A stretch of DNA of 64,000 nucleotides. Origin: an uncultured Oscillospiraceae bacterium (GTDB taxonomy: Bacteria > Bacillota > Clostridia > Saccharofermentanales > UBA5734). Within the stretch, counting starts at the first letter, position 1. Every line of letters begins with the position of its first letter. Below, one piece after another: positions 8,671-64,000 of the stretch. A program made the position numbers and the translations under genes. Under the pieces are notes generated by a model. It ran no database searches. It had not been told where the DNA came from and saw nothing but the letters and a program-made list of their open reading frames with translations. The stretch covers positions 6,401 to 70,400 of the forward strand of contig CAWHBQ010000007.1 of NCBI GenBank assembly GCA_963827665.1, read 5' to 3'.

Positions 8671-8928
8671 TTATTCGTCAGGTTTGAATTTTTCATGGAT
8701 GTTTTTGTCGAAAATCACGACGGGAGCCTTGCCACAGCGGCCAAGACAGGAGCATGTCCTGATCTTGTACTCTTTTTGGCCGTCTTTTGCCGAGCCATGA
8801 TCGACCATCATTTGTTGAAAATGTTCGAGGATTGCGGAAGCACCTTTGGCTCGGCAGGCTTTACCCATACAGATCTCAATTTTTATCGGCCGCTGTTTGC
8901 TGGGCCTCCCTATCGTGCCAGTTGGCAT
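8671..8928 (-). CDS. Thioredoxin-like [2Fe-2S] ferredoxin
   Basis: 85 aa. ICMGKACRAKGA ... TCSCLGRCGKAPVV is the four-Cys pattern of NuoE/thioredoxin-like 2Fe-2S proteins. Confidence 0.65.
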   Translation of the reverse strand: MPTGTIGRPSKQRPIKIEICMGKACRAKGASAILEHFQQMMVDHGSAKDGQKEYKIRTCSCLGRCGKAPVVIFDKNIHEKFKPDE

Positions 8929-26127: not shown

Positions 26128-26148
26128 GTTGCGAGTCATAGTCTGCGG

Positions 26149-28162
26149 TCATAGTATGCGAGTCATCAGCCGATGATCCAGCATATCGAGATACGAGGTG
26201 GCCGTTCTGCTCGATGTGCTGTTTGCGACCGGCCAGGTTGTCGCCGAGCAGCAGGTCGAACGTGTCCAGCATGTCAGCTGGGCTTCTGCCGGCAGCACCT
26301 GGATCAGGCGGCGGGTTTCCGGATTCATCGTCGTCAGCCACATCATTTCCGGCTCGTTTTCGCCCAGCCCTTTGGAACGCTGGATCGAGCACTTGTCCGC
26401 GCCGAGCCTGGCCAGCAGTGTCGCTCTTTTCTTTTTCAGTATAGGCAAAATAGGTGTTTTCTTCTTTCTTGGTCCGCTGCGTGATTTCAAACAGCGGCGA
26501 TTCGGCGATAAAGACTCTTGCCTTTCTCGATCAGGGTCGGCGTCAGCCGGTAGAGCATGGCCAGGATCAGGGTCCGGATCTGGAAGCCGTCGACATCGGC
26601 ATCGGTGCAGATGATGATCTTGTTCCAGCGCAGGCCGTTCAAGTCAAAGGCTGACAGATCCTTGTTGTGGCGGGTCTGGATCTCGACGCCGCAGCCGAGG
26701 ACCTTGATCAGGTCGACGATGATCTCATTCTTGAAAATTGCTTCATAATCGGCTTTCAGGCAGTTGAGGATCTTGCCGCGGACCGGGATGATCGCCTGGA
26801 ATTCGGCATCGCGGCCCATTTTGCAGGAACCGAGCGCCGAATCGCCTTCGACGATGTAGAGCTCGCGCCGTTCGAGATCCGTGGTCCGGCAGTCGACAAA
26901 TTTTTTGACCCGGTTGATCATGTCGACGCTGCCCATCAGCTTCTTCTTGATGTTCAGGCGCTGCTTCTCGGCGCTTTCGCGGCTGCGCTTGTTGACCAGG
27001 ATCTGTTCGACGACCCGGTCGCCTTCGGCCTTGTTCTCGATGAACCAGATTTCCAGCTGGCTGCGGAGCATCTCGGTCATGAATTCCTGGATGAACTTGT
27101 TGTTGATCGCCTTTTTGGTCTGGTTTTCATAGCTGGTCTGGGTCGAAAACGAACTGGCGACCAGGATCAGGCTGTCCTGGATGTCGGCGAAGGTGATCTT
27201 TGGCTTCATTGCCCTTGTATTTGTCCCGCAGGCTTGATCTGGCGGTCCAACTCGGCGACCAGTGCGTTGCGCACAGCCTTGTCCGGCGAGCCGCCATATT
27301 CCAGCCAGCTGGAGTTGTGATAGTACTCGAGCAGGTTGATTTCATTGTTGAAGCAAAAGGCAATCGCCGCCTTGACCTTGTATTCCGGCTTGTCGGCGCG
27401 GTCGCGGCCCTTGCCGCTGCCTTCGAACAGAACCGGCGTGCTGATGCCGCTGCCTGTGTCGAGTTCACGGACATAGCCGAGGATGCCTTCCGGATAATAG
27501 AAAGTGTCGTTCCTCGCTTGACTCTTCGTCAAACAGTATGAAGGTGATACCGGCGTTGACAACCGCCTGGCGCTTGAGGGTCGCCTGAAAATACTCGAGC
27601 GGGATATGGATGTCGGTGAAAACATCGCGGTCCGGCCGCCATTTCTGGATCGTCCCGGTCTTTTTCTGGCGGACCGGCTCCTTGGTCAGTCCGCCGATAT
27701 TCTCGCCCTTTTCAAAATGCAGCTGATAGCGGAAGCCGTCGCGGACGACCGTGACATCGAAATATTCGGATGCATATTGCGTCGCGCAGGCGCCCAGGCC
27801 GTTCAGGCCCAGGCTGTATTCATAGGAGTCGCCGCTGTTGTTGTTGTATTTGCCGCCGGCATAGAGTTCGCAGTAGACCAGTTCCCAGTTGTAGCGCTCT
27901 TCCTTGCTGATTGAAGTCGAGCGGAATGCCGCGGCCGTAGTCGCGGACCTCGATCGAACCGTCCTTGAAACGGCGTGACTTCGATCTGGTTGCCGTAGCC
28001 TTCGCGGGCTTCGTCGATCGAGTTGGACAGGATTTCAAAAAAAGAATGCTGGCAGCCTTCCAGGTCGTCGGAGCCGAAGATGACGCCGGGACGCAGGCGA
28101 ACCCGGTCGGCGCCTTTCAGCGAGGAAATGCTTTCGTTGTCGTAGGCTTTGGTTTTGGCCAT
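26149..28162 (-). pseudogene. Type IIA topoisomerase subunit B (ParE/GyrB family), many frameshifts as assembled
   Basis: MAKTKAYDNESISSLKGADRVRLRPGVIFGSDDLEGCQHSFFEILSNSIDEAREGYG (GHKL). LYIVEGDSALGSCKMGRDAEFQAIIPVRGKILN...IIICTDADVDGFQIRTLIL (TOPRIM). RSKGLGENEPEMMWLTTMNPETRRLIQV lies in a different frame. AGGAGG RBS before ATG 28162. Confidence 0.8.
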
Positions 28163-28194
28163 GCCGTACTCCCTCCTGTCAGAATCTGGCATCG

Positions 28195-30480: not shown

Positions 30481-31203
30481 TTAGTCCAAGTCCAGCCAGG
30501 GCTTTCGACGCAGCAGATCGGCTTTGAAAACATCAGCGTTGCGGTTCATGATCAGTTCTTCGGGAAAGTCGATTGAGCGGACCAGTGCTTCGGCCAGATC
30601 AACTTGGCCAACCTGGTCAGCCGTGTGTGCATCACTATTGATCACGATCGGCACTTGCAGATCACGACAGGCGAGCGCTATCTCTAGGCAAACATCACCG
30701 TCCTGCCTGCGCTTCTTGATGGTCCAGCGATTGATTTCGACCATTGTCCCCGTGGCTTTGCAAGCTTCAAGAACAGCCGGAATGTCATAGCGGTAATTGC
30801 CCCGTCCGGTATGGCCGAGGATATCGATCAATGGATTCTGGGCAGCCGCGATCAAGGCACGTGTATGATCTTCCCTGTTCGTCGGTTCAATGATGATTTC
30901 ATGAAAACTCGCGATGACAACATCCAGTCGTCTTAACAACTCGACAGGCAAATCCAATTCGCCGTCGAAATCCATCAGGTTTGCTTCAACGCCACGAAGA
31001 ACTTGTACACCGTCAAGCCAGTGAGGGACCATTTTGAGCGAATTGAAATACAGGCTGTTGGCTGAGCCCGGAATGGCAGGGCCATGGTCGGTCAGAACGA
31101 AGCCGTCCAACCCGCGCCTGCGGCAGTAACCGGCAATTTCTTCAAGGGTGCCGAACGCGTGACCGCTGGCAATTGAGTGGACATGGCAGTCGAATTTAAT
31201 CAT
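30481..31203 (-). CDS. PHP-domain phosphatase (YcdX-like)
   Basis: MIKFDCHVHSIASGHAF..., LTDHGP and INSDAHT metal-ligand motifs. GGAGG lies 6 nt before ATG 31203. Confidence 0.75.
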   Translation of the reverse strand: MIKFDCHVHSIASGHAFGTLEEIAGYCRRRGLDGFVLTDHGPAIPGSANSLYFNSLKMVPHWLDGVQVLRGVEANLMDFDGELDLPVELLRRLDVVIASFHEIIIEPTNREDHTRALIAAAQNPLIDILGHTGRGNYRYDIPAVLEACKATGTMVEINRWTIKKRRQDGDVCLEIALACRDLQVPIVINSDAHTADQVGQVDLAEALVRSIDFPEELIMNRNADVFKADLLRRKPWLDLD

Positions 31204-31214
31204 GGAAGCCTCCG

Positions 31215-33266
31215 TCAAGGTGTCAGGACATCTGTGAATTCACCGAAAATGATTGTCGTGTCATCCTGGCGGTAGGAGCGCACCTTGTAAAAGTATTCTA
31301 AATCAGGAATGAGTGATTCATCCAGATAATTTGTTGTCGCGTTGTCGGCAATTTTTGCAAAACTGCCCTTTCGTGAAGTCGCACGGTATATTTCATAACC
31401 ATCAGCACTGTCCACGGGCGACCAGATGGCTTGTACGATGCTCGGGCTGATCCGGGAAACGATGAAATTTTCCGGCCTGGCAGGAATGGGCGTGGCTGAA
31501 ACGATTTCAGAAAAACCATTGTGGATGGCCGTCATACCGCAAATTGAATAGCCTCTGATTTTATAGAAGTAAGTGATGCCGGTTTTCACACCCAGATCAT
31601 TATAGGATGCTCCGACAGCGTTGATTTTATCGATTATTTCGAAGGATCCGGCAAGACTGGTGTCCCGGCTGATTTCGTAATAATCACAGCCTGGATCATC
31701 CAGCCAACTTAAGACGACGCTGTTGGAATCGACCGATTTGGCACTCGGCTCTTCAATTGCTTCATCCATCCAGCGCGCATAAAGTGTGATGTCCGATTCA
31801 AGTAAATCTGTCTCGAAATTCCAGGCCTTGAGGTAGTTCGGATCCTGATACCAACCGACAAACAAGTGTCCTTCCAGATTCGGCATGTCAGGCTCGGGGA
31901 TCAGGTTGCCACCAGCCACCGAGACTTCTGTCAAATCGCGATCATTCTGGGCGTCGAATGTGACGGAATAGACTGGTGAAAAAGAATCGGTGCGATAACC
32001 ATATAAAGTTGGCGGGGCGAACCCGTTTTTCTCCAAAATATAATAGATTTTAAAGTCTTCCGCACTGCCATGAAAGGCCTCATAACCGATTGCAGGGGCA
32101 TCGCCGTAGATATAAGCCGCTTTCAACTGACAGCCACTGAAAGCATGCTCACCGATATGATAGATACTGGCCGGAAACTCAATGCTGGTGAGCCCTGTAC
32201 AGCCGGCAAATGCCTGCATACCGATCCTGGCCAGATTCTTGCCCAGTGACACAGCCTTAAGCCCCGTACAATCCTTGAAAGAACGCCAGTTGACGGTGAT
32301 CACACTGTCTGGAATCGTCATATCTGTCAGATATCGGCAGGAATTGAATGCATTTTCGCCAATGATGCTGACACTTTCCGGGATATTGAACACCGGTGCG
32401 GTCTGACCAGCAGGATAGCATAATAGAGACGAGATTTTCTTGTCGAACAAGACGCCGCCAATACTCACGAAATTGCGATTTTCACTGGCGACATCGATTG
32501 TTTTCAAATTCTGGCAAAGTACAAAGGCTTGGCCACCAATGCTGGCGACTTCTTTTGAAATGGTTACTGCAGTCAGGCTGGCACAATCCCAGAAAGCACA
32601 GTCGCCCACAGTTTTCACTTGATCCGTTAAAGTCATACGCGTCAGCGCTGTGCAATTTGAAAACGCACTTTCCTCAATTGTCGTCACATTGGCTGAAAGG
32701 GATAAACTCGTCAAGCCTGAACAGCCACTGAACGATCCCGCACCAACCGTAATGACAGTATCCGGGATCGTGTAGGCCTGATCCGGCTTGCCTTTCGGGT
32801 AACAGATCAAGGCCGTTTGCAGATAGTTGAACAAGACACCGCCATTACTGGAAAACGATGTGTTTTCTGGCGCAACGTTAATTGTCGCCAGGCTATCACA
32901 GCCAAAAAAGGCACCCTTGCCGATACTGGCAACATTTTGTGGAATCGCGAACGCTGTCAGCATGGTGCAAAAAGAAAATGCATATTCGCCGATCGTAACC
33001 ACACTGTCTGGAATTGCCAGGCTCTTGATCCCTGTAGTGCCCCAGAACGCGCCATCGCCGATACTCGTCACCGGATATCCGCCCAATGACCCAGGGATTG
33101 CGACATCGCCGCCTGGGCCGGTGTACTTTTCGACCGTGGCTGAATTCTCCGAAATCGTGTATTGATAGTCACCGGATGATTCAGCAATGATGGTCTGGGG
33201 GATCGGAACCAGGCAAATCAAGAGAACGACAAGAATAGCCACAGATTTCTGAAGCATTTTTTTCAT
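31215..33266 (-). CDS. Secreted BspA-type leucine-rich-repeat protein with a Listeria/Bacteroides (Flg_new) repeat and two Fn3-like domains
   Basis: Signal peptide MKKMLQKSVAILVVLLICLV. About 14 repeats of the type IPDSVxxIGxxAFxxCxxLTSI. YSVTFDAQ...LFVGWYQDPNYLKAWNFETD. Two C-terminal about 90-aa modules with WxxV..ADGYEIYR. Confidence 0.8.
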   Translation of the reverse strand: MKKMLQKSVAILVVLLICLVPIPQTIIAESSGDYQYTISENSATVEKYTGPGGDVAIPGSLGGYPVTSIGDGAFWGTTGIKSLAIPDSVVTIGEYAFSFCTMLTAFAIPQNVASIGKGAFFGCDSLATINVAPENTSFSSNGGVLFNYLQTALICYPKGKPDQAYTIPDTVITVGAGSFSGCSGLTSLSLSANVTTIEESAFSNCTALTRMTLTDQVKTVGDCAFWDCASLTAVTISKEVASIGGQAFVLCQNLKTIDVASENRNFVSIGGVLFDKKISSLLCYPAGQTAPVFNIPESVSIIGENAFNSCRYLTDMTIPDSVITVNWRSFKDCTGLKAVSLGKNLARIGMQAFAGCTGLTSIEFPASIYHIGEHAFSGCQLKAAYIYGDAPAIGYEAFHGSAEDFKIYYILEKNGFAPPTLYGYRTDSFSPVYSVTFDAQNDRDLTEVSVAGGNLIPEPDMPNLEGHLFVGWYQDPNYLKAWNFETDLLESDITLYARWMDEAIEEPSAKSVDSNSVVLSWLDDPGCDYYEISRDTSLAGSFEIIDKINAVGASYNDLGVKTGITYFYKIRGYSICGMTAIHNGFSEIVSATPIPARPENFIVSRISPSIVQAIWSPVDSADGYEIYRATSRKGSFAKIADNATTNYLDESLIPDLEYFYKVRSYRQDDTTIIFGEFTDVLTP

Positions 33267-52197: not shown

Positions 52198-52974
52198 CTA
52201 TGGAACGGCCGTCTCTGTTTCGGGCTGGTCCGGAACGGCTTTGATGATCTGTGGATCGTAGGATGGTTCCAGATGTTGTCCGGGAAGGACCAGCTGGAAC
52301 CGGGCAGGATCCCAGGGTGAATGGACAAGTTCCCTGAACAAGCGCAGGGTCCCCTTCTGTTCGTCGCTTGTCCAGCCCAGATCACTTGCACTTTCCACAG
52401 TGAATTGCTTTAACTCATCCCATCGTCCGGCTGCCCATTCAAGTTCTGGTTCCAGGATCAGGCAGGCCTGCTGATATTCATGAATCCAGCGCCATTCTTC
52501 TTCAATCAGATAGTCGGCTGTATCGGGGTCTTCATAGGTGTCCAGGAATTGGCTGCGTTTTTCTGCCAATCGCTGCACACTCGGCAAACTGCCAGTTTCG
52601 TACCAGCCTTGGCTGAACCAGTATGTTCCGGGATGATCATCAAAATATTGCTGATAGTGTTCTTTTGACCCCAGTAATAAAGTGATGCAATCATGGGCCC
52701 GTGGCACAACCAGCACAGCGTGACGGGTTTTCAAGCCGACAATGCCATTTGAACACAGACCATAACCCAGCAGAATAAAGTCGTACTGGTTATCCAGTTC
52801 ATCGATTTTAGCCTGGAGAAGCTGCTGGAGTCGGCTGGGTTGATCATGCAGGCCCTGTTCCAGGTAGATGGGCATGATTTTCAGGTTGGAATCAACCATG
52901 GCGGCTGCCAGTTCACGCCAGATGAGGTGGCAGGCGATCAAAACAGCTGTCTTTTGCCCCCCGAAATTGCCCAT
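52198..52974 (-). CDS. DUF1638-like protein of unknown function, translationally coupled to larC
   Basis: 258 aa. VLIACHLIWRELA, PIYLEQGLHDQPSRL, FILLGYGLCSNG, LVVPRAHDCITLLLGS match my memory of DUF1638. ATG lies 2 nt after the larC TGA. Confidence 0.65.
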   Translation of the reverse strand: MGNFGGQKTAVLIACHLIWRELAAAMVDSNLKIMPIYLEQGLHDQPSRLQQLLQAKIDELDNQYDFILLGYGLCSNGIVGLKTRHAVLVVPRAHDCITLLLGSKEHYQQYFDDHPGTYWFSQGWYETGSLPSVQRLAEKRSQFLDTYEDPDTADYLIEEEWRWIHEYQQACLILEPELEWAAGRWDELKQFTVESASDLGWTSDEQKGTLRLFRELVHSPWDPARFQLVLPGQHLEPSYDPQIIKAVPDQPETETAVP

Positions 52975-52976
52975 CT

Positions 52977-54428
52977 TCAGTCGGCCTGTCCGGCCAATTG
53001 CATAACCATCTGCTTTGCCTCTTCGAGACTGATGTTGCGATGCCTGGCCAGATCAGCCAGATCATCATATTCGGGATAGGTGCGGCTGATATCTTGCCAG
53101 CGTACTGTTTTCAGCCGGATTGATCCATCCGGGAGTTCAACCGATGAAAATGATCGCTGCATGACATGGCGGTCAATCTGCTCGCGGCGTATACCGATTG
53201 TCCCAGTCTGGGCAAACAGGATTGTGACAATTGTTTTTTCGAGCTCAGAAACTGCCACGACGGTCAATAATTGACCGGGACGATTCTTCTTCATCAGGAT
53301 TGGACTATAAGTGACGTCTGCAACACCTGCCTCAAGTAACAACTGGGCCACATAGCCGAGCTGTTCTGGGGTCGTGTTGTCAATATGACAGGACAAAAGG
53401 ACAATTTGGTCCATTTCAGCAGGATCGAAATCCTGATGACCTGAAGATCTTTTTGCAGTTGAAGCTGAAACGTATTCTTCCGTTTGGCTGGCGATATTGG
53501 CGGAAACTTCACCCAGGATCACCCGTAGCGCATTCAGGCGGCCAATTTCACGCTGGCCAAAGCCATAACCGACTTTCAGGCGCTTCATAGCCGGTAAAGG
53601 CCCGAAGCTTGTGGCAAAAGTCTTGGCCAGGCCAAGCCCGGTAGGCGTGACCAATTCGGTGTTACTGGTGCCAGTCACATAGGGGATATCCGTGTTTTCG
53701 AGCATTTTCATCACGGCTGGAACAGGAACAGGCATCATGCCGTGCTGGCATTTGATCGTCCCGGAGCCGTCAGCGATCGGCGATACGACGACTTGGCCGA
53801 CTTGGAGATAATCCAGCGCCAGGGCAGCACCGACAATGTCGATGATCGAATCGATTGCGCCGACTTCATGGAAATGAACTTGATCTAGATGAACACCATG
53901 TACAGCAGCTTCGGCAACACCAATTTCGCGAAAAACTGCCTGTGCCTGCCGTTTGACAGACTGACTCAAGGGCGCTGAATCAATCAGGACTTTGATATCG
54001 GCGTAAGTCCGGCCATGGACATGCAAATACTCATGGCGGCTGTCGAGGTAATGTTTGTGTTCATGGACCTGGCTGTGGTGATGCTCATGGTCGTGGCCGT
54101 GATTGTGATTGTGATTATGATTATGGTCATGATCGTGTTCATGGTCGTGGTCATGGTCGTGTTCATGGTCGTGGTCGTGTTTATGGCTATGGCCTGGGCC
54201 AAGCGGTGATTGGCTATGATGGTTATCCAGATGTACCTGGAAAGAGGTGCCAAGGATGCCGCTGCGGGTGATCTTTTCAACGTGGAGGTGGTATTCGCTG
54301 GACAAGCCGAGTTTGGCCAAACCTTGCTCGATCAGGTCGAGTGGAACACCGAGGTCCAGGAGGGCGCCCAGAAACATGTCGCCACTGATGCCAGAAAAGC
54401 AATCCAGGTAGAGGATTTTATCATTCAT
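52977..54428 (-). CDS. larC: Nickel-pincer cofactor biosynthesis protein LarC (nickel insertion, DUF111)
   Basis: MNDKILYLDCFSGISGDMFLGALLDLG N-terminus and HFHEVGAIDSIIDIVG. Single uninterrupted 483-aa ORF with a long His-rich insert. Confidence 0.85.
   Translation of the reverse strand: MNDKILYLDCFSGISGDMFLGALLDLGVPLDLIEQGLAKLGLSSEYHLHVEKITRSGILGTSFQVHLDNHHSQSPLGPGHSHKHDHDHEHDHDHDHEHDHDHNHNHNHNHGHDHEHHHSQVHEHKHYLDSRHEYLHVHGRTYADIKVLIDSAPLSQSVKRQAQAVFREIGVAEAAVHGVHLDQVHFHEVGAIDSIIDIVGAALALDYLQVGQVVVSPIADGSGTIKCQHGMMPVPVPAVMKMLENTDIPYVTGTSNTELVTPTGLGLAKTFATSFGPLPAMKRLKVGYGFGQREIGRLNALRVILGEVSANIASQTEEYVSASTAKRSSGHQDFDPAEMDQIVLLSCHIDNTTPEQLGYVAQLLLEAGVADVTYSPILMKKNRPGQLLTVVAVSELEKTIVTILFAQTGTIGIRREQIDRHVMQRSFSSVELPDGSIRLKTVRWQDISRTYPEYDDLADLARHRNISLEEAKQMVMQLAGQAD
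54051..54224 (-). repeat. His-Asp/His-Asn/His-Glu dipeptide-repeat coding tract inside larC
   Basis: Encodes HHSQSPLGPGHSHKHDHDHEHDHDHDHEHDHDHNHNHNHNHGHDHEHHHSQVHEHKH. The DNA is a degenerate (CAY-GAY/AAY)n repeat. Confidence 0.85.
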
Positions 54429-55129
54429 TGTCTTTCCATCGCTTCCCTGACCCGCTGGTCAATCTGGCGGCAGATGGTCGCGGCCATATAGCCAGCGCCA
54501 AAACCATTGCCGATATTGTGGACGGCGACACCGCTGGCACACGAGTTGATCATCGCCAGCAGGGTCGTGACACCGCCAAAGTTTGCGCCATAACCAACAC
54601 CAGACGGAACAGCCAGGACAGGCTTGTCAACAAGGCCGCCCAGGACACTGACCAATGCGCCCTCCATACCGGCAACAGCGATGATGACGTCAGCCTGGCG
54701 AATATCGTCAATAACGGCCAACAGGCGATGCAGACCTGCAACACCAACATCGGAGAATCGACTGACTTTTGTGCCCAGTGCTTCAGCTGTCAACGCAGCT
54801 TCTTCGGCAACTGGCTGGTCTGCAGTTCCAGCCGAAACAACCGCAACATGACCAATTGTCCGGGTGTGGAAACGCCGGACTGTGATCACGCGAGCCCGAG
54901 CCGTATAAACGGCATCGGGCGCGATCGCCTGGATGGCTTCAAAATGCTCGAGATCGGCGCGTGTGGCAAGCAGGTTGTCCTGGTGGTTCAGGATGCTGGT
55001 TGTGATCTGGGCGACCTGTTCGGGGGTCTTCCCTTCACAGAATACAACTTCGGCAAAACCATTGCGCACTTTGCGCGAATGGTCTACTTTGGCAAAACCG
55101 AGATCTTCATACTGGTCAAGATCACTCAT
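54425..55129 (-). CDS. larB: LarB (pyridinium-3,5-biscarboxylic acid mononucleotide synthase, AIR-carboxylase-like)
   Basis: DLGFAKVDHSRKVRNGFAEVVFCEGKT..., VVSAGTADQPVAEEA, IIAVAGMEGAL. ATGA overlap with larC. Confidence 0.85.
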   Translation of the reverse strand: MSDLDQYEDLGFAKVDHSRKVRNGFAEVVFCEGKTPEQVAQITTSILNHQDNLLATRADLEHFEAIQAIAPDAVYTARARVITVRRFHTRTIGHVAVVSAGTADQPVAEEAALTAEALGTKVSRFSDVGVAGLHRLLAVIDDIRQADVIIAVAGMEGALVSVLGGLVDKPVLAVPSGVGYGANFGGVTTLLAMINSCASGVAVHNIGNGFGAGYMAATICRQIDQRVREAMERQ

Positions 55130-55144
55130 CGGTCATCGTCCTTT

Positions 55145-55972
55145 TCAATCAAGCTGGTTCATGCTGCCTGAGTGATAGCCGTAAAGGTCAAGTGTACAAT
55201 ACTTGAAGCCTGCGGACTTCAGGCACTCTCTCAATGTTTCGATCATAGCGGCGTCAAGACCTTTTGCCAGTTGGCCGGGGTCGAGTTCAACCCTGGCCAG
55301 ATCGCCGTGGTCGCGGACCCGGACCTGGACCAGTCCCCGACGGCGCAGCAATGACTCTGCACGGTCAATCCGATCCATCGCTTCCCGCGTAATGGCCGTA
55401 TATGTGGGAATGCGGGTTGCCAGACAGGCCATGGCCGGTTTGGCAGCATAGTCCGGACACAAGGTCCTGGCCAGCTCGCGGATATCGGCTTTGGTCAGTC
55501 CTGCCTGGGCCAGCGGGCTGATGATCTTCATTTCACGAAGTGCCTGCAGGCCAGGCCGATAATCGCCGAGGTCATCGACGTTGGTGCCATCGCAAAGCAC
55601 TGTGAAGCCAGCCTGGCTGGCTTCAGCCAGAAGGGTGTTGAAAATGATCTTTTTGCAGTGATAGCATCGGTCTGGCGGATTGTCGCTGAAGGGCGGCAAG
55701 TCCAGGATGCTGTCAGGCAAATGGATCACCCGGTGACTGATTCCGGCAATTCTTGCGACATCGTCGGCATCCTGCCGGTCATCTTCGGGCACCATCGGGG
55801 CGGCTGCGATTACGGCTAGAACATTGTCTGCACCAAGGATCCGGGCCGCAGCGACAGCCAGTACCGTGCTGTCGACTCCGCCCGAGCAGGCAATGGCGAT
55901 TCGCTGCAAGGGTTCAAGGACCGACGTCAAGGCTTGCATCAGCTGGTTATAGTCCCTTTGTCCTGCAGTCAT
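55145..55972 (-). CDS. larE: LarE (ATP-dependent sulfur transferase, PP-loop)
   Basis: IACSGGVDSTVL PP-loop, DRCYHCKK and PAMACLATRIP Cys motifs. Its ATG shares one nt with the prfB TAA (TAATG). Confidence 0.85.
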   Translation of the reverse strand: MTAGQRDYNQLMQALTSVLEPLQRIAIACSGGVDSTVLAVAAARILGADNVLAVIAAAPMVPEDDRQDADDVARIAGISHRVIHLPDSILDLPPFSDNPPDRCYHCKKIIFNTLLAEASQAGFTVLCDGTNVDDLGDYRPGLQALREMKIISPLAQAGLTKADIRELARTLCPDYAAKPAMACLATRIPTYTAITREAMDRIDRAESLLRRRGLVQVRVRDHGDLARVELDPGQLAKGLDAAMIETLRECLKSAGFKYCTLDLYGYHSGSMNQLD

Positions 55973-58782: not shown

Positions 58783-59529
58783 TTAAAGTTGTGGCTTCGA
58801 TGGTATCATAACCGGAACTTTCTTTACAAGATAAAGATAGAGCATCGCCATAAGGCGGCCTTGGGCAAAGGTCTGCAGGACGATGAAAAATTGCGGGACC
58901 AGGAATGAGGTCATGAATGTGGCTGGCAGCAGACTAAGCACTATCGATTCCGGTAAAGAGAGCAGGATGGAGAGAAAAAACATCTGCAGCAAGACCATTA
59001 TCCGGAATCCTTTGGTCAACTGGACGCTGGCTTGCAGGCCGTCGACCAGTTTCCGGCGGTCAGCGAGCAACAGCAAGGGTAAAAGGTATAGGTTGGCAAC
59101 GGCAAAAAATACCGGAATCATGAACAGGAGTGCCGAAAGCATTATGGGCACAACCATCAGGGCCAGGATCAGGATCAATCTTGGCAGACCGGTGAAAAAG
59201 CCCTTGGCAATTTCCTGCCCCGACCGTGAATCGTGTTCACCGACCATCATGGTTGCATAGGCGAAGATGACAAACAAATTGATGATGCTGACTATCATAG
59301 TCATGCCGATGACAACCATGTTTCCGGTCGTGAAACTTGGAATGCCCTTGGCCGGGTCAGCCATATATGCTTCCACTCCGGACAGGAAGGCTGAAAAATC
59401 AGGATCGCCAAAGGGAACGACGTATGGTGCAATATTGATCAGATAGAGGACAATAAAACCGATCTGGACAAGACGTTCGTGTTTGACTTTGTAAAATTTC
59501 AGTGCTTCCAGGGTCAGTAGCAAATTCAT
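58783..59529 (-). CDS. Polytopic membrane protein, unknown function
   Basis: 248 aa with about 6 hydrophobic segments. AAAGGAG RBS before the ATG. No family recognised. Confidence 0.5.
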   Translation of the reverse strand: MNLLLTLEALKFYKVKHERLVQIGFIVLYLINIAPYVVPFGDPDFSAFLSGVEAYMADPAKGIPSFTTGNMVVIGMTMIVSIINLFVIFAYATMMVGEHDSRSGQEIAKGFFTGLPRLILILALMVVPIMLSALLFMIPVFFAVANLYLLPLLLLADRRKLVDGLQASVQLTKGFRIMVLLQMFFLSILLSLPESIVLSLLPATFMTSFLVPQFFIVLQTFAQGRLMAMLYLYLVKKVPVMIPSKPQL

Positions 59530-59542
59530 GGGTTCTCCTTTG

Positions 59543-59577
59543 AAAAAACCTTACGGATCTTGAACTGGTCCGTAAGG
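59543..59577 (-). terminator. Strong rho-independent terminator closing the hydrogenase-like sensor cluster
   Basis: Minus strand CCTTACGGA-11 nt-TCCGTAAGG (9-bp perfect stem) followed by TTTTTT. Confidence 0.7.
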
Positions 59578-59637
59578 CCGATAAGCAGTGCCGGAAATAC
59601 CGTTCAGTATTTTCAAGCCAGCGGAAACATTATCCTG

Positions 59638-60204
59638 TCAGGATGTGATTTCGTCCAGATAGCCAGAGAATACGGCTTGTTGCTGCTCTCTGACATAGTC
59701 GCGCAGCCAGACTAGAACGGACGGTTCATCAAGCGGCAAGTCCTCAAGTTCAGTCCGGACGTCCGCCAGATTCAATTCAAACAATCGATCCGGGGCACTG
59801 AAGGTCAGTGAATAATTCAGCAGCGGATCTGCGGAAACCAGCACGAAAAGGGTATCTCCGATTTCACCGAGCGGCAGGCGGTCAATGCTCGACAGCCCCA
59901 GACAGGCGACAAGCCTGGTCCCCTTTCCTTCAACTGAGCTCAATTCGAGATGTCCGCCGGTCAATTCACAGAGTTCTTTGAGCAATGGAATCCCCAGGCC
60001 TACTGAACGCGTCGTCCTTGATGTGACAAAAGGGTCTTTCACCCTTTCGACCATTTCGGCCGGCATGCCGCTCCCATTGTCGGTAATCGACAGGACAAGC
60101 TGATCCGAGTCCGGGCGAACTTCAATGGCAATTGAAATTTCATTGGCTTTCGCTTTGACTGAATTCTGGACGATATCCATCAAATGCAGGGATAAATCGC
60201 GCAT
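59638..60204 (-). CDS. Stand-alone GHKL (HATPase_c) ATP-binding protein
   Basis: 188 aa. DIVQNSVKA (N-box-like), ITDNGSGMP (G1), SVGLGIPLL (G2). No HisKA/DHp, TM or receiver domain. Confidence 0.65.
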   Translation of the reverse strand: MRDLSLHLMDIVQNSVKAKANEISIAIEVRPDSDQLVLSITDNGSGMPAEMVERVKDPFVTSRTTRSVGLGIPLLKELCELTGGHLELSSVEGKGTRLVACLGLSSIDRLPLGEIGDTLFVLVSADPLLNYSLTFSAPDRLFELNLADVRTELEDLPLDEPSVLVWLRDYVREQQQAVFSGYLDEITS

Positions 60205-60240
60205 TAAACTTTACTCCAATTCTGGCTGGGAAATATTATA

Positions 60241-60981
60241 TCATTCGTTCAAACGCGGTCGCAAGGCAGCGATCAAATTCAGGCGGCCCTGGCTTGGCTG
60301 TTCCCAGGCAATAACGTCCAGTGGCCAGCCTGGTTCTTCAATCGAAACCAGGTGGTGCGAATCTGAACTGACCAGGTAGTCAAACCGTAGAAGTTCAGGA
60401 TGATCGTGGAAAAATCGTACAGGTTCCGCTCTTTTTGACAATTCGATCCAGGAGGCCGGAAAATCATCCGGTACAGCGCCAAGGTTCGTCAACATGCTGT
60501 TGGCCTCCCGGTCAAGATGGGCGGGGATGCAGACACCACCAAGTTCCAATGTGATTTGTGCAATTTCATCACAGGATAGCTGGCAAGACTGTAGCAACAG
60601 GCGATCTTCGTGGCCGATACACTCATCATCCTCATTGAAAACCAGCTGCTCACCAAAAATCTCCGGGCGGTTCTTGAGTGGCAGCATCGCGTCCTGGACT
60701 TTCCCTTCCATGACTTTGGCGGAATCGAGATCCGGGAACAGGCAAACCAGGTGAATTTCTTCACTCGATTCAATTTCCATGCCCGGTATGACCAGGGGGC
60801 CATCCATCGCTTCAGCGATTGCGATCGCCGCTTCGCAGTTGCGGCAGCTCTGGTGATCGGTGACCGCGATGATCTCAAGGCCAGCCAGCATCGCCATGCC
60901 GACGATATTGCCAGGCGTCATATCTGCATCCGAGCAGGGCGAAAGAGCCGAGTGGATGTGCAGATCACACTGGAAAACCAT
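60241..60981 (-). CDS. PHP-domain phosphoesterase
   Basis: MVFQCDLHIHSALSPCS..., AVTDHQS, CIPAHLDRE. Confidence 0.7.
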   Translation of the reverse strand: MVFQCDLHIHSALSPCSDADMTPGNIVGMAMLAGLEIIAVTDHQSCRNCEAAIAIAEAMDGPLVIPGMEIESSEEIHLVCLFPDLDSAKVMEGKVQDAMLPLKNRPEIFGEQLVFNEDDECIGHEDRLLLQSCQLSCDEIAQITLELGGVCIPAHLDREANSMLTNLGAVPDDFPASWIELSKRAEPVRFFHDHPELLRFDYLVSSDSHHLVSIEEPGWPLDVIAWEQPSQGRLNLIAALRPRLNE

Positions 60982-60983
60982 GA

Positions 60984-61328
60984 TCAGGCAAGAAAGGCAG
61001 CCAGGCGCACGCTGGCCTCGTAAGTGGACAATGGGGTCCGCAAGACGATAACGTCCTTGGCCCGGGCCCGGGCGGCAACATCTTCCGGCAGTTCGACATT
61101 TTCAGTCAACAGGACACAGGCGCACTCCGTCAGGACAGCGACGGCTATCACATTGATGCTATTGAGAATCGTCATCCAGATATCCGTTCGCTGGGCATGG
61201 GCCATAACCCAGCTGAGCATATCGCAGGCATAGCCACTGTTGACTTCACGGTCGGAAAGGTCCTCCCCCACTAGTACTTCAAAATTCAGGGCCTCTACAA
61301 TCTGGTCAAGCGTCTTCATGGCTTCCAT
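60984..61328 (-). CDS. DRTGG-domain protein
   Basis: 114 aa. GYACDMLSWVM...IWMTILNSINVIAVAVLTECACVLLTENVELPEDV...AKDVIVLRTPLSTYE is a DRTGG-like layout. Confidence 0.6.
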   Translation of the reverse strand: MEAMKTLDQIVEALNFEVLVGEDLSDREVNSGYACDMLSWVMAHAQRTDIWMTILNSINVIAVAVLTECACVLLTENVELPEDVAARARAKDVIVLRTPLSTYEASVRLAAFLA

Positions 61329-62664
61329 TCCCTCCTACCTTGGCATGACGGTTCAATTCGGATTCAAGTTCGCTCATCTGCGATACAACCGTGCGGATCC
61401 GTTCCTTGAGTTTGAAAATGCAATCTGTTTCAACAGCCAGGCCACGGACGATGTCTTCGGCCAGTGCGGCGCAATTTGGGGCGCCACAGGCACCGCAATC
61501 GAGACTGGGCAAGTTGTGGGTGATCTTCTCCATCTGCTCATATTTTTCGAGCGCTTTGAAAATATCCGGATCAAGTTTGAGCGCGTTGTTTGCTTCCGGC
61601 GGTTCAGGCCAAGATTCGATGGACACGGTATCGGCCTTGAAAATAGCCTCCGGATGGTCACGCTCAAAATCCTCTGCTTCACGGACATAACGGTTCAGGC
61701 GTGACTTCGCTGAATAGCGGTTGGCAACAGTCAGTGGACCGCCGATGCAACCGCCCATGCAGGAGTTGGCTTCGATGAAATCAATATCCCTGAGCCGCTC
61801 GTTTTCAATCTCTTCGAGGATGCCGACGACATTGAGAATGCCGTCGACAGCAAGGTATTTTTCAATCTGCAGACCGATCGCTTCACCGCCGGAGTAGCCC
61901 CAGCGAACACCGTAAGAGTCAGCCAGCATCCGGGCTTCGACAGCTTTGATCTGTGTTTCGTCCAATTTTTCAAGCTTGGCCAGGATTTGCGGATAAACCT
62001 CAGCAAATGAAATGACACCATCGATCAGAGTCGGCCGATGGCCGATCGGATTGGTCACTGCTGTCCGTTTTGCCGCGCAAGGACTGATGAAAAACAAACC
62101 AATTTCTTCAGTCTTGAAAGATGTCCTGGCCTGGGCATCACGGCGCGCGATCTCTGCAGTGACTTCCATCGGTGAGTCAAATGGCACCAGATTGTCGATC
62201 AAGCCTGGATATTTCTCCTGGATCACCCGGACAACTGCCGGACAAGCTGATGAGATCAAAGGCAGTTTGTGTTCGAGCCGAGCTTTCGGCAAATAATCAG
62301 CGGTCCCCTTCGTGACGATTTCGGCACCAAGGGCAACCTCGTAAACATCATCAAAACCGATATTGCGCAGAGCGGCGAGCACCATGACGCGAGTCGCAGG
62401 TGTACCGAACTGGGCATACAGTGAAGGTGCTGCCAATGCAATTTTATATTTAAATGAGTCAAGCATCTCAAGCGTGTCCATCTGGGCGCTCTTGGCGTGA
62501 TGCGGGCAGGCTTTGATGCACTCGCCGCAGTCGATACAGCGCTCCTCGGCGATGCGCGCCTTGCCATCACGGACGCGGATCGCCTCAGTCGGACATTTTT
62601 TGATGCAATTTGTACAGCCGACACATTTTTCTTCGTTCAATCGGACAGAGTGGAGCTTTGACAT
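61306..62664 (-). CDS. [FeFe]-hydrogenase-like protein, sensory type (2x[4Fe-4S] ferredoxin domain, H-domain-like core, C-terminal CxxCxxxxC Fe-S module)
   Basis: CVGCTNCIKKCP and CIDCGECIKACP. H-cluster-motif equivalents LISSACPAVV, FISPCAAKR, EANSCMGGCIGGP. C-terminal LDCGACGAPNCAALAEDI. Confidence 0.75.
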   Translation of the reverse strand: MSKLHSVRLNEEKCVGCTNCIKKCPTEAIRVRDGKARIAEERCIDCGECIKACPHHAKSAQMDTLEMLDSFKYKIALAAPSLYAQFGTPATRVMVLAALRNIGFDDVYEVALGAEIVTKGTADYLPKARLEHKLPLISSACPAVVRVIQEKYPGLIDNLVPFDSPMEVTAEIARRDAQARTSFKTEEIGLFFISPCAAKRTAVTNPIGHRPTLIDGVISFAEVYPQILAKLEKLDETQIKAVEARMLADSYGVRWGYSGGEAIGLQIEKYLAVDGILNVVGILEEIENERLRDIDFIEANSCMGGCIGGPLTVANRYSAKSRLNRYVREAEDFERDHPEAIFKADTVSIESWPEPPEANNALKLDPDIFKALEKYEQMEKITHNLPSLDCGACGAPNCAALAEDIVRGLAVETDCIFKLKERIRTVVSQMSELESELNRHAKVGGNGSHEDA

Positions 62665-62680
62665 GATATAACCTCTTGAT

Positions 62681-63016
62681 TTAAAAGCGCACCGTGATCG
62701 TCAATGTTGTCCCCTTGCCGATTTCGGTCTCAATGGACATTTCGTCCGAGTGTTTCTTGATATTCGGCAAGCCCATGCCAGCGCCAAAGCCCATCTCGCG
62801 CGCAATGTCCGGCGCAGTCGACCAGCCCTCTTGCATCGCGAGGTTGACATCAGGGATGCCTGGGCCATTGTCGATGATTCGGATGACGATGTGGTCCGGA
62901 TAAATGACGGCTTCAGCCCGGCCGCCGCCGGCGTGGATCACGGCATTGATTTCAGCCTCGTACATCGCAATTGCGGCACGTTTGACTGCAGAAGGCGACA
63001 CACCGAGTCGATTCAA
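62681..63016 (-). CDS. SpoIIAB/RsbW-like GHKL Ser-kinase-type ATPase (N-terminus probably extends to 63108; see finding)
   Basis: EAEINAVIHAGGG (N-box), IIDNGPGIPD (G1), GFGAGMGLPN (G2). A conserved-looking N-terminal 30 aa (LKLEYTIQGSDFINAGEASSGTKKAL) lies upstream of the first usable start codon. Confidence 0.65.
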   Translation of the reverse strand: MNRLGVSPSAVKRAAIAMYEAEINAVIHAGGGRAEAVIYPDHIVIRIIDNGPGIPDVNLAMQEGWSTAPDIAREMGFGAGMGLPNIKKHSDEMSIETEIGKGTTLTITVRF

Positions 63017-63103
63017 TGCCTTCTTGGTGCCACTTGATGCTTCGCCGGCATTGATGAAATCTGAACCTTGGATGGTGTATTCAAGCTTTAGCGGTTCGAT
63101 AAG

Positions 63104-63454
63104 TCATTCCCCCTTGCCTTTGACGCCATGCTGGTACAGGATGCCGCACGCAGAAAACATGGGCAAAGGTGTGGTGAGAATGCAAATATCCTTCTCCCTG
63201 GCTAAATCCAGCATGCCCTGGCCCGGGATCTTGCCCCGCACAAAAACAATGACTTTGACATCCATCATCTCGGCTGTGCGGATCGTCTGCGGATTGACCA
63301 GCCCGGTCAACATCATTTGATTCGTTGAGCAGGAGAATGCCATGACATCGCTCATCAAATCAGCACCGCAGGCAACACTGATCTCGAAATCCATTTCATC
63401 ACTTGGTACCAGCATAGAAGCATGCAGTGCATCAACACACGCGCTCAATTTCAT
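63104..63454 (-). CDS. DRTGG-domain protein
   Basis: 116 aa. GADLMSDVMAF...MMLTGLVNPQTIRTAEMMDVKVIVFVRGKIP...AREKDICILTTPLPMFSACG. Confidence 0.6.
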   Translation of the reverse strand: MKLSACVDALHASMLVPSDEMDFEISVACGADLMSDVMAFSCSTNQMMLTGLVNPQTIRTAEMMDVKVIVFVRGKIPGQGMLDLAREKDICILTTPLPMFSACGILYQHGVKGKGE

Positions 63455-63703
63455 AGGTGACTCCTTGTTGTTTTTGTGAAAAAAGCTATTTTTGCACAGG
63501 ATCTGGTTTATAAAACGCTGAATACTCAGACATTTTGACTAAACACACTTGTAATAATTATACCATGTATGATATCATTCGAACAACGGATTTAGTTTGT
63601 AAACAGCCTGTGCCCCGACTGATATGGTAGGTCTACACCTCCAGATATTCATGGAAAGCCACTGTCTCTTTCTTGATCCGAGAAAAATTTGGAGGTTCCA
63701 ACA

Positions 63704-63880
63704 ATGCCGGACAAAATGATCACCTGTAAAGATTGTGGAGTAGAATTTGCGTTCACCGAAGGTGAACAGGCTTTCTACAAAGAGAAGGGTTTCGAGAACG
63801 AACCAGTTCGCTGCCCCGACTGCCGTAAAGCCCGTAAGAACACAAGACGTCAATCAGGTGGTTTCGACAACAGATTCTAA
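63704..63880 (+). CDS. Small zinc-ribbon protein (CxxC...CxxC)
   Basis: MPDKMITCKDCGVEFAFTEGEQAFYKEKGFENEPVRCPDCRKARK. GGAGG lies 8 nt before ATG 63704. Confidence 0.65.
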   Translation: MPDKMITCKDCGVEFAFTEGEQAFYKEKGFENEPVRCPDCRKARKNTRRQSGGFDNRF

Positions 63881-63907
63881 GATCCGTTCAACGAAACACC
63901 AACAAAA

Positions 63908-63936
63908 GCGACCCCTCGCGGAGGGGTCGCTTTTTT
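63908..63936 (+). terminator. Rho-independent terminator of the zinc-ribbon gene
   Basis: GCGACCCCTC-gcg-GAGGGGTCGC followed by TTTTTT. Confidence 0.75.
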
Positions 63937-63942
63937 GATGGC

Positions 63943-63976
63943 AAAAAAACCACCCGTAAAAATTCGTTGCGGGTGG
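63943..63976 (-). terminator. Terminator for a convergent minus-strand gene beyond the window end
   Basis: CCACCCG-13 nt-CGGGTGG with an A-run on the plus side, which is a T-run on the minus strand. Confidence 0.5.
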
Positions 63977-64000
63977 TCATCTTGATTGGAATCAATTCTT

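Follow-up and report, generated by a model that had tools for sequence, protein, structure and literature searches.

Organization of the locus

The stretch of DNA analysed here, a 64,000-nucleotide (nt) window on contig CAWHBQ010000007.1 of an uncultured Oscillospiraceae bacterium, carries a six-gene cluster centred on a HydS-type [FeFe]-hydrogenase, which is accompanied by two DRTGG-fold proteins, two GHKL ATPases and a PHP phosphoesterase. The six open reading frames (ORFs) lie head to tail and tightly packed at 59638-63454 on the minus strand; we name them g1 to g6 in order of transcription, g3 being HydS. An earlier note on this DNA had described six contiguous minus-strand genes, bounded by a divergent region upstream and a strong terminator downstream. 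The ORF coordinates and short spacers (g2-g3 16 nt, g4-g5 2 nt, g5-g6 36 nt, with g3 and g4 overlapping by 14-23 nt) bear out the first part of this description, the divergent neighbour gene bears out the upstream boundary, and direct reading combined with folding bears out the terminator. The features are listed below, with protein lengths in amino acids (aa).

63455..63688, minus strand: divergent intergenic region, likely promoter and 5' untranslated region of the six-gene unit (read from sequence)
63104..63454, minus strand: g1, DRTGG-fold paralogue of 116 aa and putative adaptor of g2 (profile alignment to the g4 family)
62681..63100 (listed ORF 62681-63016), minus strand: g2, SpoIIAB-like GHKL ATPase of ~139 aa (HATPase domains; likely ATC start)
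61306..62664, minus strand: g3, 452-aa group D (M2e) HydS-type [FeFe]-hydrogenase (domains and motifs)
60984..61328 (61319 with the second ATG), minus strand: g4, DRTGG protein of 111-114 aa, its start overlapping the g3 end (PF07085)
60241..60981, minus strand: g5, 246-aa PHP metallo-phosphoesterase (PF02811 and metal ligands)
59638..60204, minus strand: g6, 188-aa GHKL ATPase with a conserved second domain (HATPase_c at residues 7-102)
59543-59577, minus strand: intrinsic terminator closing the unit (11-pair hairpin and U6)
63689-63880, plus strand: gene for a zf_Tbcl treble-clef protein, the divergent upstream neighbour (Pfam)

Upstream of g1, an extended -10 element (TGgTATAAT, 63565-63557) and a Shine-Dalgarno (SD) sequence, AAGGAG, 6 nt ahead of the g1 ATG can be read directly from the sequence; a consensus promoter scan of the intergenic region returned a weaker site at 63603-63574. 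A riboswitch or other known RNA in the leader was considered and rejected, as the g1 leader matches no Rfam family and an Rfam E-value scan of 59300-64000 gave a chance miRNA match only. At the other end, the terminator stem reads CCUUACGGA-loop-UCCGUAAGG, followed by U6, and folds with -15.3 kcal/mol (z = -4.7; 0 of 200 shuffles as stable). It is absent from the list of the consensus scan only because its loop exceeds the 8 nt that the scan covers; direct reading and folding confirm it. Pfam and NCBIfam identify no PAS, STAS, PP2C, HisKA, receiver or significant helix-turn-helix domain in any of the six proteins, in agreement with the earlier note, which had reported all of these, and any DNA-binding domain, to be missing from the cluster.

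Synteny and the derived orphan state

Relatives of the locus were collected with one genome per species; at least 597 were found, and the best 80 were taken with 10-kb flanks. Being the best matches to the window query, these 80 loci are a sample biased towards the window. Their gene content was established by tblastn with the six window proteins and by de novo clustering of ORFs, which were called by a simple longest-ORF rule; some antisense artefacts were recognized and ignored. HydS is preceded by both g1 and g2 in 75 of the 76 loci with enough flank (g1 being found in 75 and g2 in all 76), and is followed by g4 and g5 in 68 of 72. The string g1-g2-HydS-g4-g5 is complete in 65 of the 69 loci with both flanks, the four exceptions lacking g4 and g5 together. 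Loci L035, L027, L045 and L077 hold HydS with g1 or g2 and neither g4 nor g5; in L035 (10001-12000), a second hydrogenase-like ORF of 637 aa directly follows HydS.

The gene order g1-g5, hydC, g6, a 2Fe-2S gene, hydB and hydA is found in 32 of the 80 loci, and in 6 more on truncated contigs. Beyond g5, such coupled loci encode a 165-aa NuoE-like HydC, g6, a 125-aa thioredoxin-like 2Fe-2S protein, a 598-aa NuoF-like HydB and a 582-aa group A HydA. The earlier note's statement that similar accessory genes flank hydABC operons is therefore correct for these 32 loci, and Carere et al. 2012 (PMC3561251) likewise list Cthe_0335, Csac_1857 and Teth39_1463 as D M2e genes that precede a trimeric hydrogenase. 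Twenty-one loci have g1-g5 only, and seven, including the window, are compact g1-g6 loci without hydC, hydB and hydA. In four g1-g5-only loci from Acutalibacteraceae (L047, L058, L064 and L068), a gene string lies ~3-5 kb upstream of the module, its products of 330, 186, 247, 199 and 268 aa being rnfD-, G-, E-, A- and B-like by size; HydS gives weak tblastn matches in this rnf-like stretch, to its N-terminal ferredoxin region (36-47% identity over ~40-70 aa).

In a neighbour-joining HydS tree, built without support values, the window and L001-L008 form one clade nested among coupled operons, and all clade members with enough flank are compact; the orphan state is therefore derived and inherited. 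A 2Fe-2S gene overlapping the end of g6 is kept in L001, L002, L004, L005, L006 and L084 (62-70% identity), and this gene is also lost in the window, in L081 and L082 (both 88% HydS identity) and in L083 (79%; metagenome-assembled genome GCA_028685755.1). From these gene contents the loss looks stepwise, with hydC, hydB and hydA going first and the 2Fe-2S 'HydD' gene afterwards. The window and L081-L083 have identical flanks, in the order ArgS, further genes, homoserine dehydrogenase, zf_Tbcl, the module, a 248-aa membrane protein, Lrp, an aminotransferase and prfB.

By tblastn, the window, which includes 59 kb downstream of the cluster, contains no group A HydA, NuoF-like HydB or full NuoE-like HydC, and the 10 kb past its end hold no hydrogenase genes. 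The earlier claim that the module is uncoupled from any structural hydrogenase thus stands locally, 'uncoupled' referring to the ~70 kb around the cluster. No window ORF of at least 90 aa carries the radical-SAM CX3CX2C motif, and 20 further window ORFs match housekeeping families or nothing in Pfam. The label 'stand-alone' fits the window lineage but not the ancestral state: the earlier note had allowed that the cluster might turn out to be part of a longer hydrogenase operon, and the synteny survey finds exactly this arrangement in the relatives, but not in the window lineage. An ORF at 8671-8928 was considered as a relocated 'HydD' and rejected, since it lies 51 kb away and is NuoE-like (E 2e-13), with E 0.69 to the operon 2Fe-2S protein. 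This minus-strand ORF encodes an 85-aa thioredoxin-like [2Fe-2S] ferredoxin resembling the C-terminal half of NuoE (the match of E 2e-13 is to HydC of L013), and it sits immediately upstream of a 525-aa RNase Y-like gene, identified by reading the sequence. Taken together, it is well supported that the cluster is the accessory, presumably sensory half of a clostridial hyd operon, kept self-contained by one Oscillospiraceae/Eubacteriales-like lineage.

Selection on the orphan module

Ratios of nonsynonymous to synonymous substitution (dN/dS) were calculated by the Nei-Gojobori method for the window against L081.

Module genes: g1 0.047, g2 0.022, g3 0.050, g4 0.092, g5 0.100, g6 0.051
Neighbours: prfB 0.015; Lrp and aminotransferase ~0.065 each

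The module thus resembles the neighbouring prfB and aminotransferase genes, and at least 10 clade genomes carry the six ORFs intact. Strong constraint extends to the stretch of g2 that lies upstream of its first canonical start. Judged by these sequence comparisons, purifying selection maintains the orphan module, and it is no relic. Since this strong selection acts where no hydrogenase adjoins the module, we argue that it has a function of its own.

Directly after the module, every orphan-clade member carries a gene for a 248-aa multi-pass membrane protein (58783-59529, minus strand, in the window), whose ribosome-binding site starts just past the U-tract of the terminator. The protein has no Pfam or NCBIfam match, a relative shows a faint match to UPF0259, and its dN/dS of 0.17 is faster than that of its neighbours. 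Upstream, past the window edge, follow homoserine dehydrogenase, ACT, Ham1 and ArgS. Downstream of prfB, 52198-55972 holds an ORF whose L081 counterpart matches LarC-type Ni_insertion, a DUF1638 protein, and further ORFs whose L081 counterparts match AIRC (LarB-like) and NAD_synthase (LarE-like). At 23894-28192 on the minus strand, gyrB/parE-like and gyrA/parC-like genes are broken into about nine short ORFs in differing frames between intact neighbours, with a raised GC content (0.57) and a strongly negative AT skew; the region is either a pair of type IIA topoisomerase genes in decay or the product of a local assembly error.

HydS as a group D enzyme

In Pfam, g3 matches two Fer4 domains, Fe_hyd_lg_C (134 bits) and a C-terminal FeS domain, PF04060, at residues 385-417, and has no PAS match. 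Its N-terminal domain contains eight Cys for two [4Fe-4S] centres; the C-terminal Cx2Cx4Cx16C motif consists of C390, C393, C398 and C415. The motifs L1 (ISSACP), L2 (FISPCAAK) and L3 (EANSCMGGCIGG) are kept in 81 of 81 relatives, as are the H-cluster cysteines C141, C196, C302 and C306; all 16 HydS cysteines are conserved in 80-81 of 81 orthologues. The proton-relay Cys (C299 of CpI) is replaced by Ala, with L1 reading ISSACP in place of TSCCP (81/81), and the M353 position is Ser or Thr, L2 reading FI(S/T)PC in all 81 sequences. Loss of C299 and a hydroxyl residue at the M353 position, like the eight N-terminal Cys, the H-domain, the C-terminal Cys motif and the lack of PAS, are among the traits by which the M2e subgroup is defined (PMC8163306), and g3 shows every one of them.

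Charged residues R30, R32, K58, D378, E392/D393 and D403, in the numbering of TamHydS from Thermoanaerobacter mathranii, are conserved in >75% of 70 group D enzymes (Schumann et al. 2026, PMC13104023). Matching the TamHydS positions R30, R32, K58, D378/C379, E392/D393 and D403/C404 to g3 gives exact equivalents at R30, R32, K58, D389/C390, E403/D404 and D414/C415, and these group D residues are invariant in a 13-sequence HydS alignment. Group D has no solved structure, and the best PDB sequence matches to g3 are group A enzymes with E values of ~1e-22 to 1e-17. By its architecture, motifs, conserved group D residues and Thermoanaerobacterium relatives (L048), we assign g3 to the group D (M2e) HydS enzymes, which sharpens the HydS-type centre that the earlier note had proposed.

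The g2 ATPase and its probable ATC start

g2 matches HATPase_c and HATPase_c_2 (E 2.5e-9), and its best named family is SpoIIAB (TIGR01925), with 50.8 bits against a cut-off of 135. Its N, G1 and G2 boxes are YEAEINAVIH, DNGPGI and GFGAGMGL. A STAS or sigma gene is found neither in the cluster nor among the scanned window ORFs. Classical partner switching was considered and rejected: STAS, PP2C and sigma factor are missing, and g1-g2 fusions exist.

The first canonical start of g2 lies downstream of a conserved N-terminal motif, GSDFINAGEASS, and no ATG, GTG or TTG precedes this motif, such that gene callers restricted to canonical starts shorten g2 to 94 aa. At the g1/g2 junction (window 63095-63106; L081 9558-9570; L083 9560-9570), the second codon past the g1 stop is ATC in all three genomes, and the homologous codon is CTG in L001, L002 and L006, GTG in L003, TTG in L005 and ATG in L004. 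The ATC lies downstream of a purine-rich SD-like stretch (AAGGGGGA in the window, with variants in the relatives). The real g2 start is most likely this ATC at 63100, read as a conserved near-cognate start, and it would perhaps keep the ATPase at low stoichiometry. Read-through of the g1 stop was rejected as the main explanation. In the window, L001, L002, L006 and L081, g2 continues the reading frame that ends at the g1 TGA; however, L083 has TAG there, the two genes are in frame in only 12 of 75 loci, and a start or near-cognate start follows the g1 stop in every alignable clade member.

Two DRTGG paralogues

The earlier note had counted two DRTGG proteins in the cluster, and both are found. 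g4 matches PF07085 with 41.6 bits (cut-off 25.2). g1 itself has no Pfam match; however, a profile of 56 g1 orthologues aligns to one of 59 g4 orthologues with an hhalign probability of 99.5% (E 4.6e-23), and we therefore regard g1 as a second, more conserved paralogue of the DRTGG fold. The g1 homologues P0379, P0399, P0466 and P0474 match PF07085, and the conserved g1 motifs are DLMSDV, LLTGL, RTAE, FVRGK and aCG. Directly upstream of g1, several other lineages encode a membrane-anchored protein that resembles, by eye, a SPOR-domain protein (L020 8413-9186, L048 7364-8164, L029 8257-9180 and L057 8512-9138), and P0379 (389 aa) is, by Pfam, a fusion of SPOR and a g1-type DRTGG domain.

The PHP phosphoesterase g5

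That the cluster contains a PHP phosphoesterase, as the earlier note had claimed, is supported by a match of g5 to PF02811 (27.1 bits, cut-off 26.4) and by its metal ligands: H8, H10, H43, E69, H77, H155, D207 and H209 are invariant in 40 sequences, and D6 and D42 are invariant as well. The AlphaFold2 (AF2) model (pLDDT 95.9) gives a TM-score of 0.64-0.67 to the EndoQ PHP domain, and the nearest solved folds are the PHP domains of EndoQ, BAD_1165, TM0559, RNase AM, the pAp phosphatase Cv1693 and Pol III alpha. A CpsB/YwqE-type PHP protein phosphatase was considered and rejected, the fold neighbours being nucleases and nucleotide phosphatases; of the 50 best PDB fold matches of g5 and of its sequence matches, none is described as a protein tyrosine phosphatase. 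On the model, g5 thus appears to resemble nucleotide and nucleic-acid phosphoesterases rather than protein phosphatases. The earlier note had invoked a relay through kinase and phosphatase modules; because the fold neighbours of g5 (EndoQ, RNase AM, pAp phosphatase) are not PHP protein phosphatases, a simple kinase/phosphatase pairing is not favoured.

Automatic calls of g5, in the source contig as in many relatives, begin at Met21 and give a product of 226 aa, losing 20 aa (60922-60981). Most database copies of g5 lack a PHP annotation because this late start removes the D6-x-H8-x-H10 metal site; some homologues carry the JGI name 'PHP family Zn ribbon phosphoesterase'. A second, unrelated PHP-domain protein of 245 aa is encoded at 30481-31218 of the window, minus strand.

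The MutL-like ATPase g6

g6 has the invariants N14, DxGxG, GLG and GT, and its C-terminal 85-aa domain carries IDRxPxG and W166, likewise invariant. It has no DHp/HisKA domain, the protein beginning 6 residues ahead of the histidine-kinase-type ATP-binding domain. All 120 g6 homologues among the matches listed are ~164-211 aa long and have no extra Pfam domain. MutL, MLH1/PMS2 and Topo VI-B, with their N-terminal ATPase domains, fit the AF2 model (pLDDT 87) over its whole length (TMq 0.5-0.55), whereas kinase catalytic domains match over ~100 residues only. This moderate similarity suggests that g6 may be an ATP-driven dimerizing switch rather than a protein kinase. The earlier note had proposed two SpoIIAB-like ATPases; this holds for g2, by its boxes and its best named family, and not for g6, whose whole-length fold resembles the MutL type.

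The usual place of g6 is between hydC and the 2Fe-2S gene, the start of which it overlaps. Where the operon splits into divergent units (L061), g6 stays with the hydC-DBA side, and it is absent from g1-g5-only loci. By position, the L061 split and this absence, g6 belongs genetically to the enzyme side. Its retention under strong constraint without hydC, the 2Fe-2S gene, hydB and hydA is the most unusual feature of the window. Within the 3' end of g5, just ahead of g6, lies a promoter-like TTGCGA-18-TATAAT with an upstream TG (60264-60235, minus strand), recognized purely from its consensus match at 10 of 12 positions; it may be a leftover from transcription of a separate hydC-g6 unit.

Fusions and a proposed HydS complex

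Several relatives encode neighbouring module proteins as one polypeptide. In P0425 (270 aa) and P0447 (275 aa), g1 and g2 are fused over their full length, and P0399 (556 aa) joins g1 to the N-terminus of HydS. In P0078 (545 aa), seen in two independent samples (loci L084 and L085), a g4-type DRTGG domain is joined to the C-terminus of HydS; no separate g4 is called past this gene at either locus, and L084 continues with PHP, g6 and the 2Fe-2S gene. Across loci g4 and g5 are always kept or lost together, and g1 precedes g2 throughout. From the fusions, the co-retention of g4 and g5, the order of g1 and g2, the overlap of g3 with g4 and the gap of just 2 nt between g4 and g5, we infer one complex, g2-g1-HydS-g4-g5, in which each DRTGG paralogue would serve as adaptor for one enzyme. 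In group C sensors, a PAS domain follows the C-terminal cluster (PMC8163306, PMC13104023), and in group D the g4 DRTGG protein appears to take this PAS position.

We interpret the locus as a HydS-centred accessory module, likely sensing H2, with two adaptor arms and an output in trans, and put the probability of this reading at about 0.6. H2 would bind to HydS at its slow H-cluster, from which the proton-relay Cys is missing, and HydS would change its conformation or redox state; the two paralogous DRTGG proteins, g1 and g4, would dock on it as adaptors. We envision that g1 tethers the SpoIIAB-like ATPase g2 as an ATP-using 'writer' arm and that g4 tethers the PHP phosphoesterase g5 as a hydrolytic 'eraser' arm. 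The balance of writer and eraser would set a phosphoryl- or nucleotide-dependent state, handed on to the dimerizing MutL-like g6, and the output would be post-translational, acting in this lineage on a target encoded elsewhere, either a distal hydrogenase or another redox enzyme.

Several points weigh against this proposal. Signalling by group D enzymes is argued from analogy, and TamHydS still catalyses reversible H2/H+ conversion, its C-terminal cluster being unresponsive to H2 (PMC8163306, PMC13104023). No substrate, phospho-acceptor or DNA-binding output can be identified from the module sequences. The g1-g2 fusions would favour a stable complex over classical partner switching, the 'eraser' chemistry is uncertain because the PHP fold neighbours are nucleases and nucleotide phosphatases, and the putative adaptor roles rest on four fusion proteins and co-occurrence.

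The module could instead respond to another input: HydS would sense redox state through a link to ferredoxin or NAD(H), or would sense CO or O2, with the three accessory [4Fe-4S] clusters as its true input and the pathway beyond HydS unchanged; we consider this unlikely. DRTGG domains occur elsewhere in metabolite-regulated enzymes (Pta, CBS-pyrophosphatase), the charged residues near the FeS clusters are conserved, the module persists without an adjacent hydrogenase (21 g1-g5-only and 7 compact loci), and TamHydS reacts unusually with CO and O2 (PMC8163306), all of which would fit such a sensor. However, the invariance of the H-cluster cysteines and of L1-L3 in 81 of 81 sequences is hard to explain if the H-cluster is unimportant, and the module occurs most often, and ancestrally, within the operon of a bifurcating hydrogenase. 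It is less probable still that HydS is a working, slow catalytic hydrogenase and its five partners are assembly, protection or activity-control factors. TamHydS does catalyse reversibly near the thermodynamic potential (PMC8163306), and its N-terminal clusters form a normal electron-transfer chain (PMC13104023), but the proton-transfer pathway is missing (L1 SSACP), the enzyme is slow by measurement, hydrogenase assembly is not known to employ two GHKL ATPases and a PHP esterase, and most genomes encode a high-activity HydABC alongside. Finally, a decaying remnant of a hydCBA deletion, to which the visible stepwise loss (hydC, hydB and hydA, then the 2Fe-2S gene) and the lack of a canonical g2 start codon might point, is effectively refuted by the selection analysis, with six ORFs intact in at least 10 clade genomes at dN/dS of 0.02-0.10, cofactor ligands and ATP-binding boxes conserved, the upstream region of g2 constrained and its ATC kept in three genomes.

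Returning to the H2-sensing module, a bolder version, which we put forward tentatively and with the odds against it, is that of an autonomous, so far undescribed signalling device, in which HydS would be held by two DRTGG adaptors, one bringing in a GHKL ATPase and the other a PHP esterase, to act on targets in trans (e.g. fermentation or redox balance), without a cis-linked, and possibly without any, bifurcating hydrogenase.

Comparison with known systems

Group D [FeFe]-hydrogenases are called 'sensory' by analogy only, and the present locus and its relatives offer concrete candidates for their partners: five co-inherited proteins, with fusions tying g1, g2 and g4 directly or indirectly to HydS. 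The six genes constitute a minimal system for reconstitution. H2 sensing governs electron flow in Clostridia of the gut, rumen and digesters and in engineered ethanol producers.

In concept, the module equals HoxBC/HoxJ/HoxA of Ralstonia eutropha, where a low-activity hydrogenase serves as H2 sensor bound to an ATP-using transducer. However, the metal centre and proteins of HoxBC are unrelated, and HoxJ, a full PAS-HisKA kinase, is paired with a response regulator, whereas the module has neither HisKA nor receiver. SpoIIAA/SpoIIAB/SpoIIE resembles the module in that the gene for a small alpha/beta protein is followed by one for a GHKL ATPase of ~140 aa, with a hydrolase nearby, and SpoIIAB shares with g2 the Glu-x3-Asn, DxGxG and GxGxG boxes. 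The module differs by lacking STAS, sigma factor and PP2C, and is unlike the partner-switching SpoIIAA/SpoIIAB pair because the single g1-g2 polypeptides of some organisms are at odds with an exchange of partners.

Comparable, too, are the group C enzymes (M2f; TmHydS, R. albus HydS, HfsB/HfsC), which like the module have a slow H-cluster without the proton-relay Cys and a C-terminal four-Cys cluster, and whose genes adjoin those of ATPases or phosphatases; hfsB genetics indicate sensor control of fermentation balance. Group C uses a fused PAS domain and the serine phosphatase HfsC, which is of the PP2C type, whereas the module has DRTGG proteins, once fused at the same C-terminal position, and a PHP esterase.

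A characterized enzyme close to g3 is TamHydS (Land et al. 2020, PMC8163306; Schumann et al. 2026, PMC13104023), which equals g3 in domain order, absence of PAS, loss of the C299 equivalent, Ser/Thr at the M353 equivalent and charged residues near the clusters; its gene lies upstream of a trimeric bifurcating HydABC, which that of g3 in the window does not. Sequence identity of g3 to the Thermoanaerobacterales HydS of L020 and L048 is 47-53%. Spectroscopically, TamHydS was characterized as an enzyme of low turnover and high H2 affinity, with an H2-induced change in secondary structure (PMC8163306, PMC13104023). Both papers state that its partners are unknown (PMC8163306, PMC13104023), and the one of April 2026 calls their identification critical (PMC13104023). 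We found no discussion of DRTGG or PHP neighbours in these two papers, and nothing relevant on DRTGG or PHP together with hydrogenase in the full-text literature, a scope that excludes subscription journals and so leaves an earlier mention possible.

Our coupled loci, with the order HydS, DRTGG, PHP, HydC, GHKL ATPase, 2Fe-2S, HydB and HydA, match the hyd regions described for C. thermocellum, Caldicellulosiruptor and Thermoanaerobacter. In C. thermocellum, Cthe_0335 is D M2e and Cthe_0338-0342 are the hydrogenase, with Cthe_0339 annotated as 'histidine kinase' (PMC3561251, PMC3990059), and Cthe_0336 and Cthe_0337 would be the DRTGG and PHP genes. Compared with this operon, the window lacks hydC, the 2Fe-2S gene, hydB and hydA and has g6 right after the PHP gene. 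That group D HydS exists and is usually encoded upstream of HydABC was known before; what our sequence comparisons appear to add is its orphaned, reduced form and, as by-products, the candidate partners, the fusions and the independence of the module from cis-linked hydABC.

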